The notes beneath the pieces were generated by a model that saw nothing but the letters and a program-made list of their open reading frames with translations, had not been told where the DNA came from and did not search any database. Made by a program: the position numbers and the translations under genes. From Escherichia phage UPEC03, in the sequence record MW250785: a DNA stretch of 64,000 bases; one strand, written 5' to 3'. Below, piece by piece: positions 9,301-57,761 of this stretch. The number at the start of each line of letters is the position of its first letter. Position 1 is the stretch's first letter.

Positions 9301-9870
9301 ATGCGCTTTTTAAAATACGCAAGCTGGTTTGTACTGGTTCCCCTGGATATTCTGTCCGGTGTTCTGGCTATTCTGCTGGCTCCTTTCGTGGTTCCGTTCT
9401 ACAGTGACGAAACAGGACATTTGCCTAAAGGGTTCCGTTGGATGGAAACATTCGATAACCCGATCGATGGTGATGGTGGACATATCCGGCGTTGGGCTAA
9501 CATCCGGTATCACTTAGGCGCTCTGGGTGTGTATGCGCAGCGTGTAGGCTGGTTGTGGCGTAACAAGGCGTACAACTTCGCTTATAACGTCTTAGGGCGT
9601 GAAGCACAATCAGACTTCGACTGGAAGGGAAACCCGAAAACAGAAGGTGGTTCCGACCCATCACGTCACGGTTATCTGTTGATGTGGAATGATTCGGCAT
9701 GGGGGCTTTATGTCTTCAAACCGTGGCTTAAAGTCGGAAAGGTTCAGTTCTGCTTACGCGTGTATTGCGGGTGGAAACTGAAACAGGAAGTAACTGACCC
9801 TAACGGGCTGGATCGTGCAATGCTGGCGTTCCATATCAACCCGTTACGTTATTATGTCGTAGAAAGGTAA
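9301..9870 (+). CDS. Membrane-anchored hypothetical protein (189 aa)
   Basis: SD GGAG upstream. N-terminal hydrophobic helix [23 protein letters not shown]. Confidence 0.6.
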
Positions 9871-9874
9871 TACA

Positions 9875-10237
9875 ATGAAAGCATATCAGATTTTAGAAGG
9901 TTTACACACTGGTACAATCTACCTGGAAGAAGGTAATGATGTTCGTGTGGTGGTATCCAAAACCCTCGAAATGGATTCAGTGATCGGTAAAGCTCGCGTT
10001 GCTCCATTCGCAAAACGTGAAGTCGATATTGAATTTCAACCCACTGTTAAAGTGGAAGGTGGACAACACTTAAACGTAAACGTGTTGCGCCGTGAAACTC
10101 TGGAAGACGCTGTGAAGCATCCAGAAAAATACCCACAGTTAACGATCCGTGTGTCCGGCTATGCAGTGCGTTTCAATTCACTGACTCCTGAACAACAGCG
10201 CGACGTTATCGCCCGAACCTTTACAGAGAGTCTATAA
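9875..10237 (+). CDS. grcA: Autonomous glycyl-radical cofactor (GrcA/YfiD-like)
   Basis: 120 aa. The C-terminal ~60 aa ([61 protein letters not shown]) match E. coli GrcA as I recall it, including the glycyl-radical motif RVSGYA. The N-terminal half is unrelated. Confidence 0.85.
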
Positions 10238-10518
10238 TGGCGATTGAAGACGTACAGGGCTATAAGCCCCATTCAAAAGAAAAGATCGACAAAGTAAACC
10301 ACATCAAGGCCGCTGAAATTGCCCTGGGCGAAATCTTCAAAGAACTGGATGAAGAGTATTCAAGCGATTACGCGGTATCAGATACCGATTCATTCACCAC
10401 AGAAGAACTCGATGCGATGCTTGAACGTGTCCATCAAATCCAACTGGCGAAAGACCGACTGAAAGAAGCCTCTATGTGGGCGTGTCGTGCGGTGTTCCAG
10501 CCAGAAGAAAAGTATTAA
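10237..10518 (+). CDS. Acidic hypothetical protein (93 aa)
   Basis: TAATG coupling to the grcA-like gene. Confidence 0.55.
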   Translation: MAIEDVQGYKPHSKEKIDKVNHIKAAEIALGEIFKELDEEYSSDYAVSDTDSFTTEELDAMLERVHQIQLAKDRLKEASMWACRAVFQPEEKY

Positions 10519-10523
10519 AATCC

Positions 10524-10552
10524 AGCCGTTGCCGAAAGGTAGCGGCTTTTTT
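10524..10552 (+). terminator. Rho-independent terminator
   Basis: AGCCGTTGCC-GAAA-GGTAGCGGCT (two G-U pairs) followed by a T-run. Confidence 0.65.
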
Positions 10553-10937: not shown

Positions 10938-11027
10938 AGGTATACGGGGAAAACATAAAGAACAATCTCCGAAGAGATTGATGTAATCAATGAATTTCTA
11001 TGTAGACCATACGTTAAGAGAGTTATT

Positions 11028-11468
11028 ATGAATATTGGTAGTGGTGATTCATACCCATCATGCGCATTGAGCAACTTCGCCCCGCATCCGTTTACGTTTG
11101 ACGGGGTAGAATGTGCATCAATGGAGGGCTTTTTACAAAGTCTGAAATTCAGCAATCCAGATATGCAAGCGCATGTGTGTACGCTGGTTGGTAAAGCCGC
11201 CAAGTTCAAAGGCAAGAAAAAGAAATGGTATCGCGATCAGACCCTATACTGGAAGGGTATGCCGATTCACCGTGAATCAGAAGCATATCAAATCCTGATT
11301 GAAAACGCGTACAATGCTCTTTTCCTGAATGACGGGTTCCGCCGTGCGCTGGCTGCAACCGGAAAAAGTACCTTGACTCATTCAATGGGAAAGAATAAGA
11401 TGAATGAAACGGTACTCACTGAACGTGAGTTTGTCCGAAATTTAACCCGATTGAGAGATCTGTTATGA
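11028..11468 (+). CDS. NADAR / YbiA (DUF1768)-like domain protein
   Basis: 146 aa. LSNFAPHPFTFDGVECASMEGFLQSLKF matches the N-terminal NADAR signature (SNF..PF..DG..Y.S.EH.FQA.KF). Confidence 0.6.
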   Translation: MNIGSGDSYPSCALSNFAPHPFTFDGVECASMEGFLQSLKFSNPDMQAHVCTLVGKAAKFKGKKKKWYRDQTLYWKGMPIHRESEAYQILIENAYNALFLNDGFRRALAATGKSTLTHSMGKNKMNETVLTEREFVRNLTRLRDLL

Positions 11469-11745: not shown

Positions 11746-11991
11746 ATGAGTTACGTAATTTATTTCGATTGTTCGGATCTTGATCCTTTCGTTCTGCAAC
11801 AGGCAAAGAAATATCATCAAGATATCACTGGTATCAGTGTCACGAACGATGATATGCTGTGCATCGAATTTGATTATTATCGTACATTTGAGCGTGACAA
11901 ATTCCTTGCGGATATTGAAGCGTTTAAAGTACCCTTTTCTTTGATCGTTATGAGGTTAAATCTTGAAACCAGTTATTCTTACCGACATTGA
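11746..11991 (+). CDS. Hypothetical protein (81 aa)
   Basis: Starts 2 nt after the upstream stop. Confidence 0.5.
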   Translation: MSYVIYFDCSDLDPFVLQQAKKYHQDITGISVTNDDMLCIEFDYYRTFERDKFLADIEAFKVPFSLIVMRLNLETSYSYRH

Positions 11992-12568
11992 CGGGATCGC
12001 CGTAAAATGGCAGTCGGGGTTGCCGTTCTTTTTGTCTAAACACAACATGCCGACCGATATCGCGCTGGATATGGTTACGGATGAAAAGTTCCGCGATATG
12101 ACCGAAATCTTCGGGTGTGATCACCAACTGGCGAAAATTCTCATGGAAGAATACAACAACAGTTCGTTTATTCGCTATCTAAGCGCGTATGACGATGCGT
12201 TAATTGTTATCAACCGTCTGAAAGCCAAATATGATTTTGTGGCTGTCACGGCGCTGGGAACCACTCCTACGGCAAGCCTTAACCGTATTGCAAACCTGAA
12301 CACGCTGTTCCCTTCTGCATTCAAAGAGGTTTGTGTTGTCGGTCACGGCGAAACGAAAGTACATCGTTACCTGGAAGCCAAAGCAAAATATGGCGATCGT
12401 TTAGTATGTTTCATTGATGACCTTGCAGTAAACTTGAATGAGTGTCATAACGTCATCAGTCAGTTGCCGTTATTCCATATGTTGCGTGGCGAACGTAGTG
12501 AACCGAGTGTACCTCATACTAAAGTGAATAACTGGCATGAAATTGAAAAAGCAATTGAGAACTCTTGA
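11963..12568 (+). CDS. HAD-superfamily hydrolase (5'-nucleotidase-like)
   Basis: 201 aa. TTG start with SD GAGGT. Motif I ILTDIDGI and motif IV CFIDD. Confidence 0.6.
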   Translation: MKPVILTDIDGIAVKWQSGLPFFLSKHNMPTDIALDMVTDEKFRDMTEIFGCDHQLAKILMEEYNNSSFIRYLSAYDDALIVINRLKAKYDFVAVTALGTTPTASLNRIANLNTLFPSAFKEVCVVGHGETKVHRYLEAKAKYGDRLVCFIDDLAVNLNECHNVISQLPLFHMLRGERSEPSVPHTKVNNWHEIEKAIENS

Positions 12569-13088: not shown

Positions 13089-14589
13089 ACTCGCTTCGAC
13101 TCTGAAAATTTCAGAGAAGGAAGCGATCCTGAAACGTAATGCAGGTAATGATCTGCTGAAAGAGATTTTCCGCATTACGTACACGAAACAGATTATGTTT
13201 CACATTAAGAAGTTTCCGCAGGTGGACGGTAAGCCAGGCACAACCCCGCTATCGAATGCTATCGCGGATTTGATGTCTGATTTGGCAACGCGAAAATATA
13301 CGGGCAACGCAGCCCGTGATCGTCTGCTGGATATCGTATCATCGGTGAACGAGAATGATCGCGAAGTGCTTCGCCGTATCATTAACCGCGATCTGGAATG
13401 TGGTGCTGGTACAACGTTACCGAACCGCGTATGGAAGAAACTCATTCCAGAACAGCCTCAATGCCTCGCTACGCCGTTTAGTGAGAAAGCCTTAAAACGT
13501 ATTCGCTTCCCTGCTTACTCGCAGCTTAAAGCCGATGGTGCGCGTTGTATGTCCGATCTGTTAGAGAATCAGATCCGCAAAGCAACCCGCGCGGGAAATG
13601 AGTATGAAGGTTTGGTGAATCTGGACAAGGATCTGAAAAAGATTCGTGAATATCTGGGTTATGATGTTGTACTTGATGGAGAACTGATTTATGTCCCTGC
13701 TGAAAAAACTGCTGTCGTTCCTTCAAACAGCGTTCCATTTAGTCTTGCTGGGTTTATGGGCGATGACGACGATTCTGTTTCTGACCTTGTGGCAGATGTT
13801 AGGCGGGAAGCTACCGAGAACGAGACACAAGCGGAAGCGAAACGCGAAGAGGGCAACGGGATTGTAAACAAATCCCTGAAAGGTACTATCAGCGACGAAG
13901 AACAGCGCAATATCGTTTATGTTGTCTGGGATATCGTACCGTATGAAGTATACTATGGCGATGCTCCGAGTGTTCAACCATATTGCGATCGTTTCTCTAT
14001 CCTGGAAGGTGCGCTGGCTGGCTCTGGTGTAACATCGGTTAAGTTGATCCCTTCTATCCTGGTGCAGAACTACGCGGAAGCGAAAAAGGATTACAACAAT
14101 TACCGCAATGACGGTAAAGAGGGTTCAATCCTGAAAAACGTTGATTTCAAATGGAAGGATTCACGCGTTGCGGATCAGGTGAAGTTGAAGAACAAAACCC
14201 CGATTGAACTGCGAATCATCGACGTGTACGAACACACCAAAGAAGCTCATAAGGTCGGAGGGTTCGTGGTTGAGGACTTATCAGGAGAAGCCAGAACAAA
14301 CACAGGTTCCGGTCTGACTGATACGGACTACCGATACGATGAAGACGGTATTAACCGCGTGTACATCCCGTTAGAAGAACGTGGTGAACTGGATCGCGAA
14401 TACATCATGGCGAACAAAGATGACTATATCGGCGCTATCGTCGAAATGGAAGTTGACGGACTCCAGAAGTCTAAAACGCGTAAGAAGGGCGAACCTGAGT
14501 TCAGTTTCTTCTTGCCAATCATCAAGAAGATCCGACGCGATAAGACCGAACCGGATGATATTCACGTTATCTTCGCTGATCTGTTTTAA
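13066..14589 (+). CDS. 30: ATP-dependent DNA ligase (gp30)
   Basis: 507 aa. N-terminus MILQILNELAS and AQLKADGARC (KxDG) resemble T4 ligase as recalled. Has an acidic insertion around residues 225-270. Confidence 0.92.
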   Translation: MILQILNELASTLKISEKEAILKRNAGNDLLKEIFRITYTKQIMFHIKKFPQVDGKPGTTPLSNAIADLMSDLATRKYTGNAARDRLLDIVSSVNENDREVLRRIINRDLECGAGTTLPNRVWKKLIPEQPQCLATPFSEKALKRIRFPAYSQLKADGARCMSDLLENQIRKATRAGNEYEGLVNLDKDLKKIREYLGYDVVLDGELIYVPAEKTAVVPSNSVPFSLAGFMGDDDDSVSDLVADVRREATENETQAEAKREEGNGIVNKSLKGTISDEEQRNIVYVVWDIVPYEVYYGDAPSVQPYCDRFSILEGALAGSGVTSVKLIPSILVQNYAEAKKDYNNYRNDGKEGSILKNVDFKWKDSRVADQVKLKNKTPIELRIIDVYEHTKEAHKVGGFVVEDLSGEARTNTGSGLTDTDYRYDEDGINRVYIPLEERGELDREYIMANKDDYIGAIVEMEVDGLQKSKTRKKGEPEFSFFLPIIKKIRRDKTEPDDIHVIFADLF

Positions 14590-15675: not shown

Positions 15676-16039
15676 ACCAAGTAAAACTATCCGCCTGATC
15701 CGTTGGGAAGGGCAAGAAATCCGTTATGAAGACGACGACCGCGAATTCGTCCATGAAATGCTTGCGCATAATCTGGGATTCAAAAACGCCGCACTGGTGA
15801 TGATGCAACAAACCAGCGATGAAGACACCTGGCAATGCGTCATTCTCGATCTGGACAAAAACAAGGAATACACCGAAGATGAACTGTTTGCGCTCACAGA
15901 GAACGCTACAGCGCGTCAGAAGTGCTTCATGATCGATATGCCTCGCGAGAACTACGAGAATATCAAGAAAGCCCGTAAACAGAACAAGAACAACGTGTTC
16001 GACCTGTTCATGGGCTATCATGAAGAAACTACGGCCTAA
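15665..16039 (+). CDS. Acidic hypothetical protein (124 aa)
   Basis: Overlaps the upstream ORF by 11 nt. Its stop codon overlaps the stop of convergent gene 27. Confidence 0.5.
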   Translation: MKNEPSKTIRLIRWEGQEIRYEDDDREFVHEMLAHNLGFKNAALVMMQQTSDEDTWQCVILDLDKNKEYTEDELFALTENATARQKCFMIDMPRENYENIKKARKQNKNNVFDLFMGYHEETTA

Positions 16040-17139
16040 GCCTCACTTGTTTTGCTGGTGTCGTTAGTAGCCGCTGCCACCTGTACACATTCCAATGTTT
16101 GCAGGTGGAAATCTTTTGATACGTCGCGGACACATTCAACGATCAGATACTTCCCTGAATATTCATCCCCTAACACCTCAATCAATGCCCCCACTTTAAC
16201 ATCCATTCGACCCTGATTGATATCAAACCGAATACGTTTTTCATAGCTGGATAACGTCTGACACTTCACAGCCTGGAACGGTTGACCCTGTTTGTCTGGG
16301 TTCTGGAAGTTGTTCTCATATACCGCGTTTCTGTTCATGGTGATCCATGCGTTTTCAATATCGGTACTCGCAAGGATATCACTATACAGTTTTTTATCCG
16401 TCATCGAGAAACTAAAGAAACTTGCATCCCCTAACAGGGTAGTGTTATCCTTATGGGTAATGTATTCACCTTTCGTGAATACCAAAGCGTCACCTAAAAA
16501 CGGGTTACTTACGTTGAACTTGTAAGCCTTTAACGGGGTTTGTGCGAGGATCTCCGTATTGCTTTTCATAAAGATACCGGAACCATCTTCCCACAGATAA
16601 CAGAAGTCAGACGAATCTACGCTCTGCCCGTTGTCACGGATGTAATCAAACACGGTTTCATACGTCCCGCTCAGGCAAGCCGGAGGAATACGCACGTTTG
16701 ATGCGTCGATATGCGGCGTGATCAACTTCATATCGTTATACAGTGCCGTCATGCACTCTGTAATCGTCTGTACGGCGTTGTTACTGAACGAACGGGAAAA
16801 CTTACGACGAAACACCGTATGCACCGGAGAAAGGTTTAGGCGCAGTATAGAGCGGTTCATATCATCGGTTTCGACGTTTGAATACAGAACACCGTAGTAA
16901 TGCTGTTCTAACGTTTCGTTATACTGGAAGGATACCTGAATAATCGGTTTTTCTGTCAACTGATAGATTAACTGGTTATCATAGATCTGCATCAATGTTT
17001 CAGAAGTACCGTTAATGATGGTTTTCTCACTCATTGAGACAAGGGCAGGTAACAATTCAAGATAGACGTTATCAGCGAACTTTTCATATGTTGGATATAA
17101 TTTAACCGACACGACGCGGTTTATAACTTTACTGGACAT
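16036..17139 (-). CDS. 27: Baseplate hub subunit gp27
   Basis: 367 aa. N-terminal VSVKLYPTYEKFADNVYLEL..MQIYDNQ..IIQVS and C-terminal YLIVECVRDVS are collinear with T4 gp27 as recalled. Confidence 0.7.
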   Translation of the reverse strand: MSSKVINRVVSVKLYPTYEKFADNVYLELLPALVSMSEKTIINGTSETLMQIYDNQLIYQLTEKPIIQVSFQYNETLEQHYYGVLYSNVETDDMNRSILRLNLSPVHTVFRRKFSRSFSNNAVQTITECMTALYNDMKLITPHIDASNVRIPPACLSGTYETVFDYIRDNGQSVDSSDFCYLWEDGSGIFMKSNTEILAQTPLKAYKFNVSNPFLGDALVFTKGEYITHKDNTTLLGDASFFSFSMTDKKLYSDILASTDIENAWITMNRNAVYENNFQNPDKQGQPFQAVKCQTLSSYEKRIRFDINQGRMDVKVGALIEVLGDEYSGKYLIVECVRDVSKDFHLQTLECVQVAAATNDTSKTSEA

Positions 17140-39006: not shown

Positions 39007-39211
39007 GATTAGCTCGCTCCACCGCTACCGCATCACGAACAGCATCGGTGATTTCATTTTCAACGAAATCCAGGATATCCGCTGTAATATCGTCGATACA
39101 GGATTGATTGTAGTTACGTGAATCAGGATCATCATCTTCGGCATAATCCTGATACGCTTCGCCCAGTTGTTTCAGCTTGTGTTTTAACAGCTTTTGTTCT
39201 TGCGGTCTCAT
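38999..39211 (-). CDS. Acidic hypothetical protein (70 aa)
   Basis: ATGA-coupled to the macro-domain gene. Confidence 0.5.
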   Translation of the reverse strand: MRPQEQKLLKHKLKQLGEAYQDYAEDDDPDSRNYNQSCIDDITADILDFVENEITDAVRDAVAVERANHD

Positions 39212-39705
39212 GATAAATCCGCCTTATGTGGATCAACCGATGGATCGAAGTGAACAACGATGATTGGATAATCACCCGTACACTCGTCGATAATGGCGCT
39301 AATACGCAACCAATCGCCACCAGCAAGCCCCGCACCGATAAGAGGGGTAATGATAGGCAATTTTTCAGGAAACGCACTGGCGCGTTCTACGGCGCTCACA
39401 AAGCATGATCGGATTGCGTCATAATCCACTTGCGGGCCAGTACCCCAGAATTTAAACTGAGTGTAGGCATTGAAGACAATCTGACCTTCTTCCGTCATGT
39501 AGATGGAGTTAGTGCCTAACTTACGCTGGTCTCCTTTCATCGTCAATGCATCAATTTTGAACGCACCAGGGATTTTGTGCTTCACTTCTTTAGCAATACC
39601 CGCACCCATGTTGCAATAACAGTTACACCCATGAATCAAGTGTACTTTTCGTTTCAGGAACAACTCTACAGCGTTCCCTTTGATTTCTTTAATAATCATT
39701 TTCAT
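39208..39705 (-). CDS. Macro domain (ADP-ribose binding/hydrolase) protein
   Basis: 165 aa. HGCNCYCNMGAGIAKE and PLIGAGLAGGDW match the macro-domain phosphate-binding loops. Confidence 0.75.
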   Translation of the reverse strand: MKMIIKEIKGNAVELFLKRKVHLIHGCNCYCNMGAGIAKEVKHKIPGAFKIDALTMKGDQRKLGTNSIYMTEEGQIVFNAYTQFKFWGTGPQVDYDAIRSCFVSAVERASAFPEKLPIITPLIGAGLAGGDWLRISAIIDECTGDYPIIVVHFDPSVDPHKADLS

Positions 39706-39787
39706 CACCTGTATAGTGGCGGTAAGCCAGCACAGCCAGCCCCGCGATCACAACAATAACACACATTAAGATATAACCTGTGTTCAT
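39689..39787 (-). CDS. Small TM protein (32 aa; below track cutoff)
   Basis: MNTGYILMCVIVVIAGLAVLAYRHYTGDENDY. ATGA-coupled to the upstream mini-ORF. Confidence 0.3.
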   Translation of the reverse strand: MNTGYILMCVIVVIAGLAVLAYRHYTGDENDY

Positions 39788-53932: not shown

Positions 53933-54315
53933 TTAGGCAATGCCCCGAAAGACAGCAGCCCCATACGATGATCGTTATCTGATTCACCAGTGCTGAATTC
54001 AAATTCTTCACCGCTGATACTGATAGCGCGGAAACCGTCTTTCAGGTATGGCAACAGATACAGAGGGATCAGCATCATGTTTGAATCGTCGCTCCACTTA
54101 CGGAAGCCCAGATTTTTCATTTCTTCCAGCGTCAAATCATTCGGATCGACGGGTTCGAAATCAGGGGAAGCGTAAAGGCGTCCAGGCAGATCGCGAATAT
54201 TTTTCACGGTGAATGAATCACCCCAGGACTGATACACGGTAGGTTCAGCGGCGCGGGTTGCGGTAGCCAGGAGGATCATTTGACAGATTTGAAAAGTTGT
54301 TGCTTTTGGTTTCAT
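53929..54315 (-). CDS. Hypothetical protein (128 aa)
   Basis: ATGA-coupled to the Nudix gene. Confidence 0.55.
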   Translation of the reverse strand: MKPKATTFQICQMILLATATRAAEPTVYQSWGDSFTVKNIRDLPGRLYASPDFEPVDPNDLTLEEMKNLGFRKWSDDSNMMLIPLYLLPYLKDGFRAISISGEEFEFSTGESDNDHRMGLLSFGALPK

Positions 54316-54725
54316 GATGTATATCCCACAAGTTTAGTCAGTAAATTCCCCATAGTCTTACGCGCATGATCGCGGATCTGGCTATACGGAACATATTTGA
54401 AGTCATCCATTTCAGTAATGGTTCGACCATTTTTAACGAAGGTTGAAGCACAAACACATTTTTCTGCTTCGGGGTAATTATTACCCACATATACGAATAA
54501 CACAAGCTCTTTTTTACTCGTATAATCAATCAGACCCAGGCTCAACAGTTCGTGTTGTTCAACTACAACGCCCGTTTCCTCGAAGCATTCACGGATAGCA
54601 GCATTGATCGGGGATTCGCCTTTTTCGATATGCCCCTTTGGGATGTCCCAATGAGGCGTTTCGGTTGCGTGGCCCATTAAAACGCTGCCGTTATTCAGGA
54701 AGAGAATACCAGCAGACCGTTCCAT
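54312..54725 (-). CDS. Nudix hydrolase
   Basis: 137 aa. Nudix box GHIEKGESPINAAIRECFEETGV. Confidence 0.85.
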   Translation of the reverse strand: MERSAGILFLNNGSVLMGHATETPHWDIPKGHIEKGESPINAAIRECFEETGVVVEQHELLSLGLIDYTSKKELVLFVYVGNNYPEAEKCVCASTFVKNGRTITEMDDFKYVPYSQIRDHARKTMGNLLTKLVGYTS

Positions 54726-57137: not shown

Positions 57138-57761
57138 TCACCCATTATGTTTGAAGTATTCGATCTGACGCAGACGTTTTTCTGCTGCCTCTTTCGAATC
57201 ATATTCACCAAGTTCTTTCGTGCGATCATGGTTCAGCACAACCCACTTATCGCCGCGATGTTCGATGTGCTCCGTGATGTCTTCAACTTTCTTATCAAGA
57301 TCCAGCGGTTCAGCATCTTCCTCGATAATAGTCAAATCTACGGGCAGTGTCAACAGTCTTTTAACTCCGCTGATATCTTCGATGCGGGAATCATATGCGA
57401 GCGTTACGTGTGGTTTGTAATCGTCATAATCGTATGTTGCTCCAGCATCCATTGCATCTTTGAAGCGGCTATGGAGATAATCAGATTCCAGAACGCCCAC
57501 GATCGTATTACCGTATTTCGTTTCCCACTTCTCCACGTCAACCAGTCGGGCAGGTTCAGAGATACCGGAGGCAGGGAACAGATCAACCGTCTTACGGCTA
57601 TACACAATCGTTGTATGCAGTTTTGCAGCGGAAACAGGATTCTCTACACCCAGAAGTTTTTGCACCTTCGCGAGCGCTTCACAGGAAGCCTGATCGAACT
57701 TCGCACACATATAGATCCCCGGATCAACTACGGGTTTCGCTACTTCAATAAAACTTTTCAT
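57138..57761 (-). CDS. 57B: 2H phosphoesterase, gp57B / Acb1-like, with ~55-aa C-terminal extension
   Basis: 207 aa. Two H-x-T motifs (LHTTIVYS, PHVTLAY). Lies directly downstream of 57A as in T4. The extra C-terminal segment is GDKWVVLNHDRTKELGEYDSKEAAEKRLRQIEYFKH. Confidence 0.6.
   Translation of the reverse strand: MKSFIEVAKPVVDPGIYMCAKFDQASCEALAKVQKLLGVENPVSAAKLHTTIVYSRKTVDLFPASGISEPARLVDVEKWETKYGNTIVGVLESDYLHSRFKDAMDAGATYDYDDYKPHVTLAYDSRIEDISGVKRLLTLPVDLTIIEEDAEPLDLDKKVEDITEHIEHRGDKWVVLNHDRTKELGEYDSKEAAEKRLRQIEYFKHNG

Follow-up and report, generated by a model that had tools for sequence, protein, structure and literature searches.

Phage NADARs and Their Relatives

The subject of this report is a small gene at positions 11028-11468, plus strand, of a stretch of 64,000 nucleotides from Escherichia phage UPEC03 (sequence record MW250785); the whole stretch is here called the window. 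By sequence, the gene is a full-length ortholog of gene 30.3 (adfN) of phage T4. Very probably it is the adfN of the RB16 lineage and, judged by its characterised relatives, encodes a minimal stand-alone ADP-ribosylglycohydrolase of the NADAR fold. A first-pass annotation, made from the sequence alone, had proposed reversal of guanine ADP-ribosylation and antagonism of DarT as its candidate function. This candidate function is an already known one, because T4 gp30.3 has been published as AdfN with precisely this activity; for the window protein it holds by analogy. The gene is also known in kind, since publications have for years assigned the family to a ‘phage NADAR’ class.

AdfN of T4 is a DNA glycohydrolase acting on guanine-ADP-ribose; resistance to the DarTG1 system requires it, and it is by itself enough to confer this resistance (Johannesman et al. 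2025, PMC11825919). Its gene, adfN (30.3), was mapped by means of T2 x RB69 and T4 x RB69 chimeras. When it is deleted, T4 and T2 form no plaques on DarTG1 hosts, and its expression rescues RB69 (PMC11825919). The purified T4 protein strips ADP-ribose from DNA modified by DarT1, and the variants E36A and K43A are impaired; AdfN-T4 neither binds DarT1 nor counters DarTG2 (PMC11825919). In RB69, a frameshift eliminates the C-terminal helix and correlates with sensitivity to DarTG1, and T4 AdfN truncated correspondingly is less active (PMC11825919). An independent transposon screen, HIDEN-SEQ, found 30.3/adfN to be dispensable on K-12 and lost under DarTG1 (bioRxiv 10.1101/2025.11.20.689424). In vitro, the T4 phage NADAR hydrolyses guanosine-ADP-ribose on DNA and RNA (PMC11125620, PMC11833690). 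Thymidine-ADP-ribose was not reversed by NADARs, and the NADAR and YbiA families are the only ones listed for reversal of cytidine-ADP-ribose (PMC11125620). For the T4 protein, in short, the experiments proposed in the first-pass annotation have been carried out already.

The active site has been delineated in other NADARs. In structures of PnNADAR with ADP-ribose, E43 and E125 hold the distal ribose, and K50 the pyrophosphate and adenine; the equivalent residues of E. coli C7 DarG1, E88, D171 and K95, are needed for catalysis (PMC11543638). The hallmark of phage NADARs is a histidine that replaces the glutamate (YbiA family) or aspartate (DarG1 family) of the last strand (PMC11125620, PMC11543638). 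The T4 NADAR cannot substitute for DarG1 in uninfected cells (PMC11125620). AdfN-Bas32 and AdfN-Bas60 (Markadamsvirinae, Vequintavirinae) are, like AdfN, orphan phage NADARs that act against DarTG1 and are specific for guanine-ADP-ribose; they are active without phage infection (PMC11825919).

The adfN Ortholog of the Window

The open reading frame was found exactly where the first-pass annotation had placed it, on the plus strand, and the signature quoted there, LSNFAPHPFTFDGVECASMEGFLQSLKF, corresponds to residues 14-41 of the translation. The gene and its elements are as follows.

11028-11468, plus strand: adfN, ortholog of gene 30.3, an ATG-to-TGA reading frame encoding a stand-alone ‘phage NADAR’ core domain of 146 residues
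11016-11022, plus strand: purine-rich AAGAGAG, 5 nt 5' of the adfN ATG, read off the sequence as a presumptive Shine-Dalgarno-like element
11067-11078, plus strand: codons of L14-S15-N16-F17, the conserved N-terminal NADAR motif, which pairs with ‘FSNF’ of YbiA in hhalign
11124-11126, plus strand: E33 (GAG), the catalytic glutamate by alignment, equivalent to E36 of T4 AdfN, E43 of PnNADAR and E88 of E. coli C7 DarG1
11145-11147, plus strand: K40 (AAA), the ADP-ribose/phosphate-binding lysine by alignment, equivalent to T4 K43, PnNADAR K50 and C7 K95
11379-11381, plus strand: H118 (CAT), the last-strand histidine, equivalent to T4 H123 by alignment
11421-11462, plus strand: C-terminal alpha-helix, residues 132-145, intact according to DSSP on the predicted model and aligning to the end of T4 gp30.3

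The stop codon shares ATGA (11465-11468) with the start of the following reading frame. This is a real, conserved gene and not a chance reading frame, because the product matches the Pfam family PF08010 (Phage_30_3) with 188.5 bits (E 5.9e-56, cutoff 36; residues 9-144 on profile positions 2-138 of 138), tblastn detects homologs in 1,507 phage records, and an exhaustive HMMER scan of a library of 1.84 billion cluster representatives yielded 1,166 homologs at E<=0.001, of which 711 reach E<=1e-10. The protein also matches phrog_652 (E 2e-52).

BLASTP aligns residues 1-146 with residues 4-152 of T4 gp30.3 (X53848) at 42% identity (E 1e-35). The two proteins share this end-to-end alignment, the E-K-H triad and the C-terminal helix. 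They differ in their place within the family: the window protein belongs to the larger branch from RB16, Aeromonas, Vibrio and Sinorhizobium phages (51-76% identical), not to the Tequatrovirus branch of AdfN-T4.

In principle, adfN could have decayed or lost its activity in this lineage. RB69 documents that impaired natural alleles exist, and about 7% of the representative domains have a broken triad. The RB69 allele, however, lacks the C-terminal helix, whereas the window protein keeps it and is not truncated relative to T4. The reading frame is of full length, the triad is intact, and the gene occurs at an identity of at least 90% in 173 phage records; moreover, the helix is kept in 30/30 of the closest relatives, counted as protein clusters. 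Decay is therefore extremely improbable.

Family Membership and Fold

The AlphaFold2 model of the window protein, built from 46 homologs, has a pLDDT of 89.8 and a pTM of 0.86. Its best Foldseek match in the PDB is E. coli YbiA (2b3w; E 6.9e-5, prob 1.00, TM 0.65); the Phytophthora NADAR 8bau and the NADAR of Geobacter lovleyi DarG1, 8bat, complete the top three, and the remainder is noise. As modelled, it adopts the NADAR (YbiA) fold, a helical core with small beta-hairpins at its flanks, and its nearest structural neighbours are solved NADARs. Searching the PDB sequences with phmmer gave no match for the window protein itself. With a family profile of 56 diverse relatives, in which L14, S15 and N16 reach a conservation of at least 90%, the top PDB sequence was YbiA at an E of only 0.02. 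Profile-profile comparison with YbiA by hhalign is far clearer (prob 94.5%, E 8.2e-8) and includes the Glu/Lys motif ExxxQxxK.

The presumed catalytic residues were surveyed in 150 cluster representatives. Glutamate occupies the position of E33 in 147/154 aligned domains, lysine that of K40 in 149/154, and histidine that of H118 in 137/142. Of the 138 domains spanning all three positions, 128 retain the complete triad.

Among the library proteins, gp30.3-type domains were also seen fused to BspA-type leucine-rich repeat, Lgt, FtsW/RodA-like and D-Ala-D-Ala-ligase-like modules, with E-K-H intact. Tandem copies of the domain occur as well, the second being degenerate. Unless these fusions are artefacts of gene calling, the ‘phage NADAR’ family may not be confined to phages.

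Proposed Mechanism and Points Against It

Orthology, synteny, the NADAR fold and the conservation of triad and C-terminal helix are observed for the window protein; its substrate, chemistry and role against DarTG1 are proposed by analogy with T4 AdfN and the solved NADARs. The AdfN ortholog would be made during infection and would bind the ADP-ribose that the host toxin DarT1 writes onto N2 of guanine in the phage DNA. K40 would hold the pyrophosphate, while E33 and H118 would grip the distal ribose from either side and activate it. Cleavage of the N-glycosidic bond between guanine-N2 and C1'' of the ribose would then release ADP-ribose and restore guanine. Replication could proceed in DarTG1-carrying hosts, and the protein would work as an ‘orphan antitoxin’ that does not bind the toxin.

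Several findings weigh against this reading. The window protein scores 14.3 bits with the Pfam NADAR model PF08719, below the cutoff of 35.1, and 17.9 bits with TIGR02464, the model of riboflavin-intermediate N-glycosidases, whose cutoff is 73.7; PADLOC gives no DarG1-type match. Identity to the characterised T4 AdfN is only 42%. Finally, AdfN-T4 is fully active only in T-even infection and does not rescue uninfected cells from DarT1 toxicity (PMC11125620), and activity in a Pseudotevenvirus could depend on a cofactor.

As to the family models, those built on the cellular families miss the phage NADAR branch, and membership is settled by fold and profile-profile comparison. The NADAR assignment of the first-pass annotation thus stands on fold and hhalign but not on the Pfam NADAR model; the name that Pfam assigns is Phage_30_3. 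As to the cofactor, the AdfN of the RB16 branch might be autonomous from the T-even ‘potentiating factor’, or gp30.2, the product of a gene downstream (see below), might itself be this factor, the two enzymes forming a module for de-ADP-ribosylation and clean-up of DNA. We consider this improbable.

The first-pass annotation had also mentioned hydrolysis of riboflavin intermediates. According to this idea the protein serves metabolic damage control by destroying, as a YbiA-like N-glycosidase, reactive intermediates of riboflavin biosynthesis. E. coli YbiA is indeed the joint-best structural match, and the weak TIGR02464 match covers residues 11-51. The score, however, remains far below the cutoff, and the last-strand glutamate of the YbiA family is replaced by histidine; riboflavin genes are neither annotated nor seen near adfN, and the phenotype of the T4 ortholog lies in defence. 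YbiA itself (2b3w) shares a mere 18-23% or so of its residues with the window protein and works in a housekeeping context, whereas the window protein is found in one of phage counter-defence. A riboflavin-related role is, accordingly, hardly credible.

DarG1 of the BC4488 family (G. lovleyi 8bat, E. coli C7) is 219 residues long and has an N-terminal extension, in contrast to the 146-residue core domain of the window, and uses a last-strand aspartate in place of histidine. DarG1 is encoded beside DarT1; adfN, by contrast, is an orphan among phage genes, and the queries Alt, ModA and ModB, which are T4-type ADP-ribosyltransferases and do not include DarT1 itself, gave no match in the window or in RB16. 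AdfN-Bas32 and AdfN-Bas60 belong to other NADAR clades and were independently acquired, whereas the window protein belongs to the gp30.3 clade.

A further observation concerns the alphaproteobacterial T4-like phages phiM9 and ORM_20: in both, the gene immediately 5' of a DinG-like helicase, and in the same orientation, encodes a gp30.3-type NADAR. In E. coli K-12, dinG and ybiA, which also encodes a NADAR, are divergently oriented neighbours. There may be an association of NADARs with DinG, or this may be coincidence.

Genomic Setting

The 5 kb around adfN are 97-98% identical to Enterobacter phage EcL22g, Klebsiella phage Olmo, Citrobacter phage Citrof4 and Escherichia phage RB16; these RB16-like relatives are Straboviridae of the genus Pseudotevenvirus. 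The protein is 100% identical to an Olmo gene product annotated as ‘hypothetical protein’, and the RB16 ortholog is annotated as ‘30.3’.

In T4, the genes run 31, rIII, 30.9-30.4, 30.3, 30.2, 30.1, 30, alt.1, alt and alt.-1 to alt.-3, converging on gene 54. The window reads cd, 31, tRNA-Met, tRNA-Gly, two reading frames, vs.6, vs.4, one reading frame and 30.3, followed on the 3' side by two small reading frames, 30.2, a homing endonuclease, 30 (ligase), five small reading frames and, on the opposite strand, gene 27. With T4 proteins as tblastn queries, cd, 31, 30.3, 30.2 and 30 were found in T4 order, and no match in the window was obtained for 30.1, 30.4-30.9, rIII and Alt. Hence adfN occupies the same place in the early/middle block as in T4, with cd/31 on one side and 30.2/30 on the other. 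Between 30.3 and 30.2 the window has two small reading frames, whereas the two genes overlap by ATGA in T4. The genes upstream of adfN comprise:

9301-9870, plus strand: DUF7338 protein, annotated in Olmo as homing endonuclease
9875-10237, plus strand: vs.6 ortholog, GrcA-like autonomous glycyl-radical cofactor, 76% identical to T4
10237-10518, plus strand: vs.4 ortholog, cyclic-nucleotide sponge of the Acb2/Tad1 family (Pfam PF24729, 62 bits; 53% identical to T4 Vs.4)

In T4, vs.6 and vs.4 are located near regB, about 65 kb from 30.3; in the RB16 lineage they lie about 500 bp upstream of adfN. Two counter-defence genes, vs.4 and adfN, are therefore close together in this lineage. Directly 3' of vs.4 there is a strong terminator-like hairpin (10524-10547, plus strand) with a 10-bp stem, a GAAA loop and a T-run. 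A second hairpin, CAATCTCCGAAGAGATTG at 10963-10980, is a perfect one of 7 bp with a CGAA loop, placed in the spacer 48 nt 5' of the adfN start. It has no T-run on the plus strand and may be an element of RNA stability or processing. Matches to sigma-70 promoters around adfN were no commoner than in shuffled sequence, and no convincing MotA-box middle promoter was seen when the sequence upstream of 10644 was inspected by hand.

The vicinity of the sponge gene bears on another view, in which the window NADAR acts mainly on RNA or on soluble ADP-ribose derivatives and counters RNA-targeting ADP-ribosyltransferases (ARTs) or signalling of the Thoeris type. Guanine-ADP-ribose on RNA is also hydrolysed by the T4 phage NADAR in vitro (PMC11833690), and Iyer et al. 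predicted the phage NADAR and Macro domains to act mostly on soluble ADP-ribose derivatives (PMC9503650). Yet the T4 NADAR is weaker on RNA than DarG1 (PMC11833690), the sole known genetic phenotype of the gp30.3 family is specific for DarTG1, and vs.4 is set off from adfN by the terminator-like hairpin and another reading frame. We thus hold it to be unlikely. As to the defence systems named in the first-pass annotation, nothing links the NADAR itself with Thoeris or with SIR2/TIR systems, and T4 AdfN is specific for guanine-ADP-ribose.

The downstream neighbour in conserved order is:

11963-12568, plus strand: gene 30.2 ortholog, HAD-superfamily phosphatase-like protein

It was identified as a HAD protein by fold search only; Pfam, NCBIfam and PDB sequences gave no match. 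In an alignment of 47 homologs the invariant residues D8-x-D10-G, T96, K132 and D152-D153 correspond to the four HAD motifs. A relationship to the NT5C-type deoxyribonucleotidases of RB16 was considered and dismissed, as BLASTP revealed no similarity. In T4, Aeromonas phage phiAS5 and the window, 30.2 follows 30.3 at a distance of no more than 1 kb; within 4 kb of 30.3 it was not found in Vibrio phage D479, Sinorhizobium phage phiM9 and Ochrobactrum phage ORM_20. A universal 30.3-30.2 module is rejected on these grounds, and because the linkage is absent from these three phages, a functional link between gp30.2 and AdfN is a weak hypothesis.

Absence of Alt and Other Genes of ADP-Ribose and NAD Metabolism

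NADARs are early genes near ARTs in several T4-like phages (PMC9503650), and in T4 and phiAS5 alt lies just past the ligase gene in the same block. One might therefore suspect that the window NADAR erases ADP-ribosylation by the phage's own Alt/ModA/ModB-type ARTs as a kind of self-regulation. The enzymes needed for this appear to be missing. In the whole window, tblastn detected no homolog of Alt at E<=0.1 (best E 0.18). Past the ligase there is no room for this protein of 682 residues: between the ligase end at 14589 and the gene at 16036-17139 (minus strand) the reading frames encode at most 124 residues. The first-pass annotation was right about the absence of Alt, but it had looked between 54 and 30; in this lineage, the gene past the ligase is 27, not 54. 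For the parts of the phage outside the window, the whole RB16 genome (NC_014467), assembled from five pieces, served as a proxy. There, Alt, ModA, ModB and gp61.2 (AdfA) of T4 reached a best E of 0.46 in tblastn, with AdfN found at E 4e-25, although BLAST could miss a very divergent ART. Taking window and RB16 together, Alt, ModA and ModB gave no match (best E 0.14-0.46), and 30.3 is retained. Because such ARTs are undetectable, a role of the NADAR as eraser of T4-type phage ART marks is disfavoured; we reject it as highly unlikely. The lineage thus differs from T4 in the four proteins that went undetected in RB16, and since AdfA is one of them, no known anti-DarT1 factor other than AdfN is detectable in the RB16 lineage.

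The first-pass annotation had further counted four enzymes acting on ADP-ribose or NAD. All are present where it had placed them, and their families match. Besides adfN, they are:

39208-39708, minus strand: macro-domain protein, ortholog of T4 Tk.4 (= AdfM); Pfam Macro, 27.6 bits
34599-35666, minus strand: NadM/NatV-type nicotinamide mononucleotide adenylyltransferase (NMNAT) fused to a Nudix domain (ADP-ribose pyrophosphatase), 355 residues; Pfam CTP_transf_like and NUDIX
54312-54725, minus strand: nudE ortholog, Nudix hydrolase of 137 residues; Pfam NUDIX, 60 bits; 39% identical to T4 NudE, annotated as nudE in RB16

They do not form a special cluster: the four genes are spread over about 43 kb, the other three lie on the strand opposite to adfN, and there is no operon. 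Three of the four (30.3, tk.4 and nudE) are ordinary T4 orthologs and therefore belong to the shared T-even repertoire. That Macro, NADAR and Nudix co-occur genome-wide in large myoviruses has already been described (PMC9503650).

The macro-domain protein aligns with T4 Tk.4 over its full length (36% identity, E 4e-30), and its gene adjoins vs and is near tk. Its similarity to DarG models is confined to the macrodomain (PADLOC E 6e-8, NCBIfam 23.8 bits). The name adfM was given to T4 tk.4 because a knockout of the gene sensitises T4 to DarTG2 (bioRxiv 10.1101/2025.11.20.689424); a chimallivirus AdfM has been published too. To regard the protein as a new DarG2-like orphan antitoxin is therefore not justified; it is an ortholog of the published T4 Tk.4/AdfM. 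AdfM of PhiKZ resembles it only weakly (26% identity), and BLAST places a phenylalanine opposite K78, the catalytic residue of the PhiKZ protein. The gene has no tblastn match in the whole RB16 genome and occurs at an identity of at least 95% in about 42 phage records; it is, therefore, a variable accessory gene of the lineage.

The NMNAT-Nudix fusion matches NCBIfam NF003786 over its full length (249 bits) and phrog_395. Outside the window, RB16 encodes the nicotinamide phosphoribosyltransferase NadV (RB16p239), which would pair with the fusion protein as an NAD+ salvage route of the NARP2 type, the published NARP2 pathway consisting of Nampt and Nmnat. Further genes of the window are:

57138-57761, minus strand: 57B ortholog, 94% identical to RB16 gene 57B over 171 residues
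43020-44366, minus strand: PIN-PhoH fusion protein, 448 residues
26017-28263, minus strand: protein of 748 residues with an N-terminal von Willebrand A domain

T4 57B is Acb1, the anti-CBASS phosphodiesterase; the window thus contains both Acb1 and Acb2.

Significance

As such, the finding is an ordinary one, already known, and it opens no new biological question. Its value is mainly one of annotation: where GenBank records say ‘hypothetical protein’ or ‘gp30.3 conserved hypothetical protein’, the gene can be named adfN. In the window it is joined by four genes of counter-defence or NAD metabolism, i.e., the Tk.4/AdfM ortholog, vs.4/Acb2, 57B/Acb1 and the NatV-type NMNAT-Nudix fusion. By analogy, the Pseudotevenviruses of Klebsiella, Enterobacter and Cronobacter would share the layered repertoire of T4 against DarTG1, DarTG2, CBASS and NAD depletion. 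Such a repertoire is useful in picking therapeutic phages for hosts that carry DarTG.
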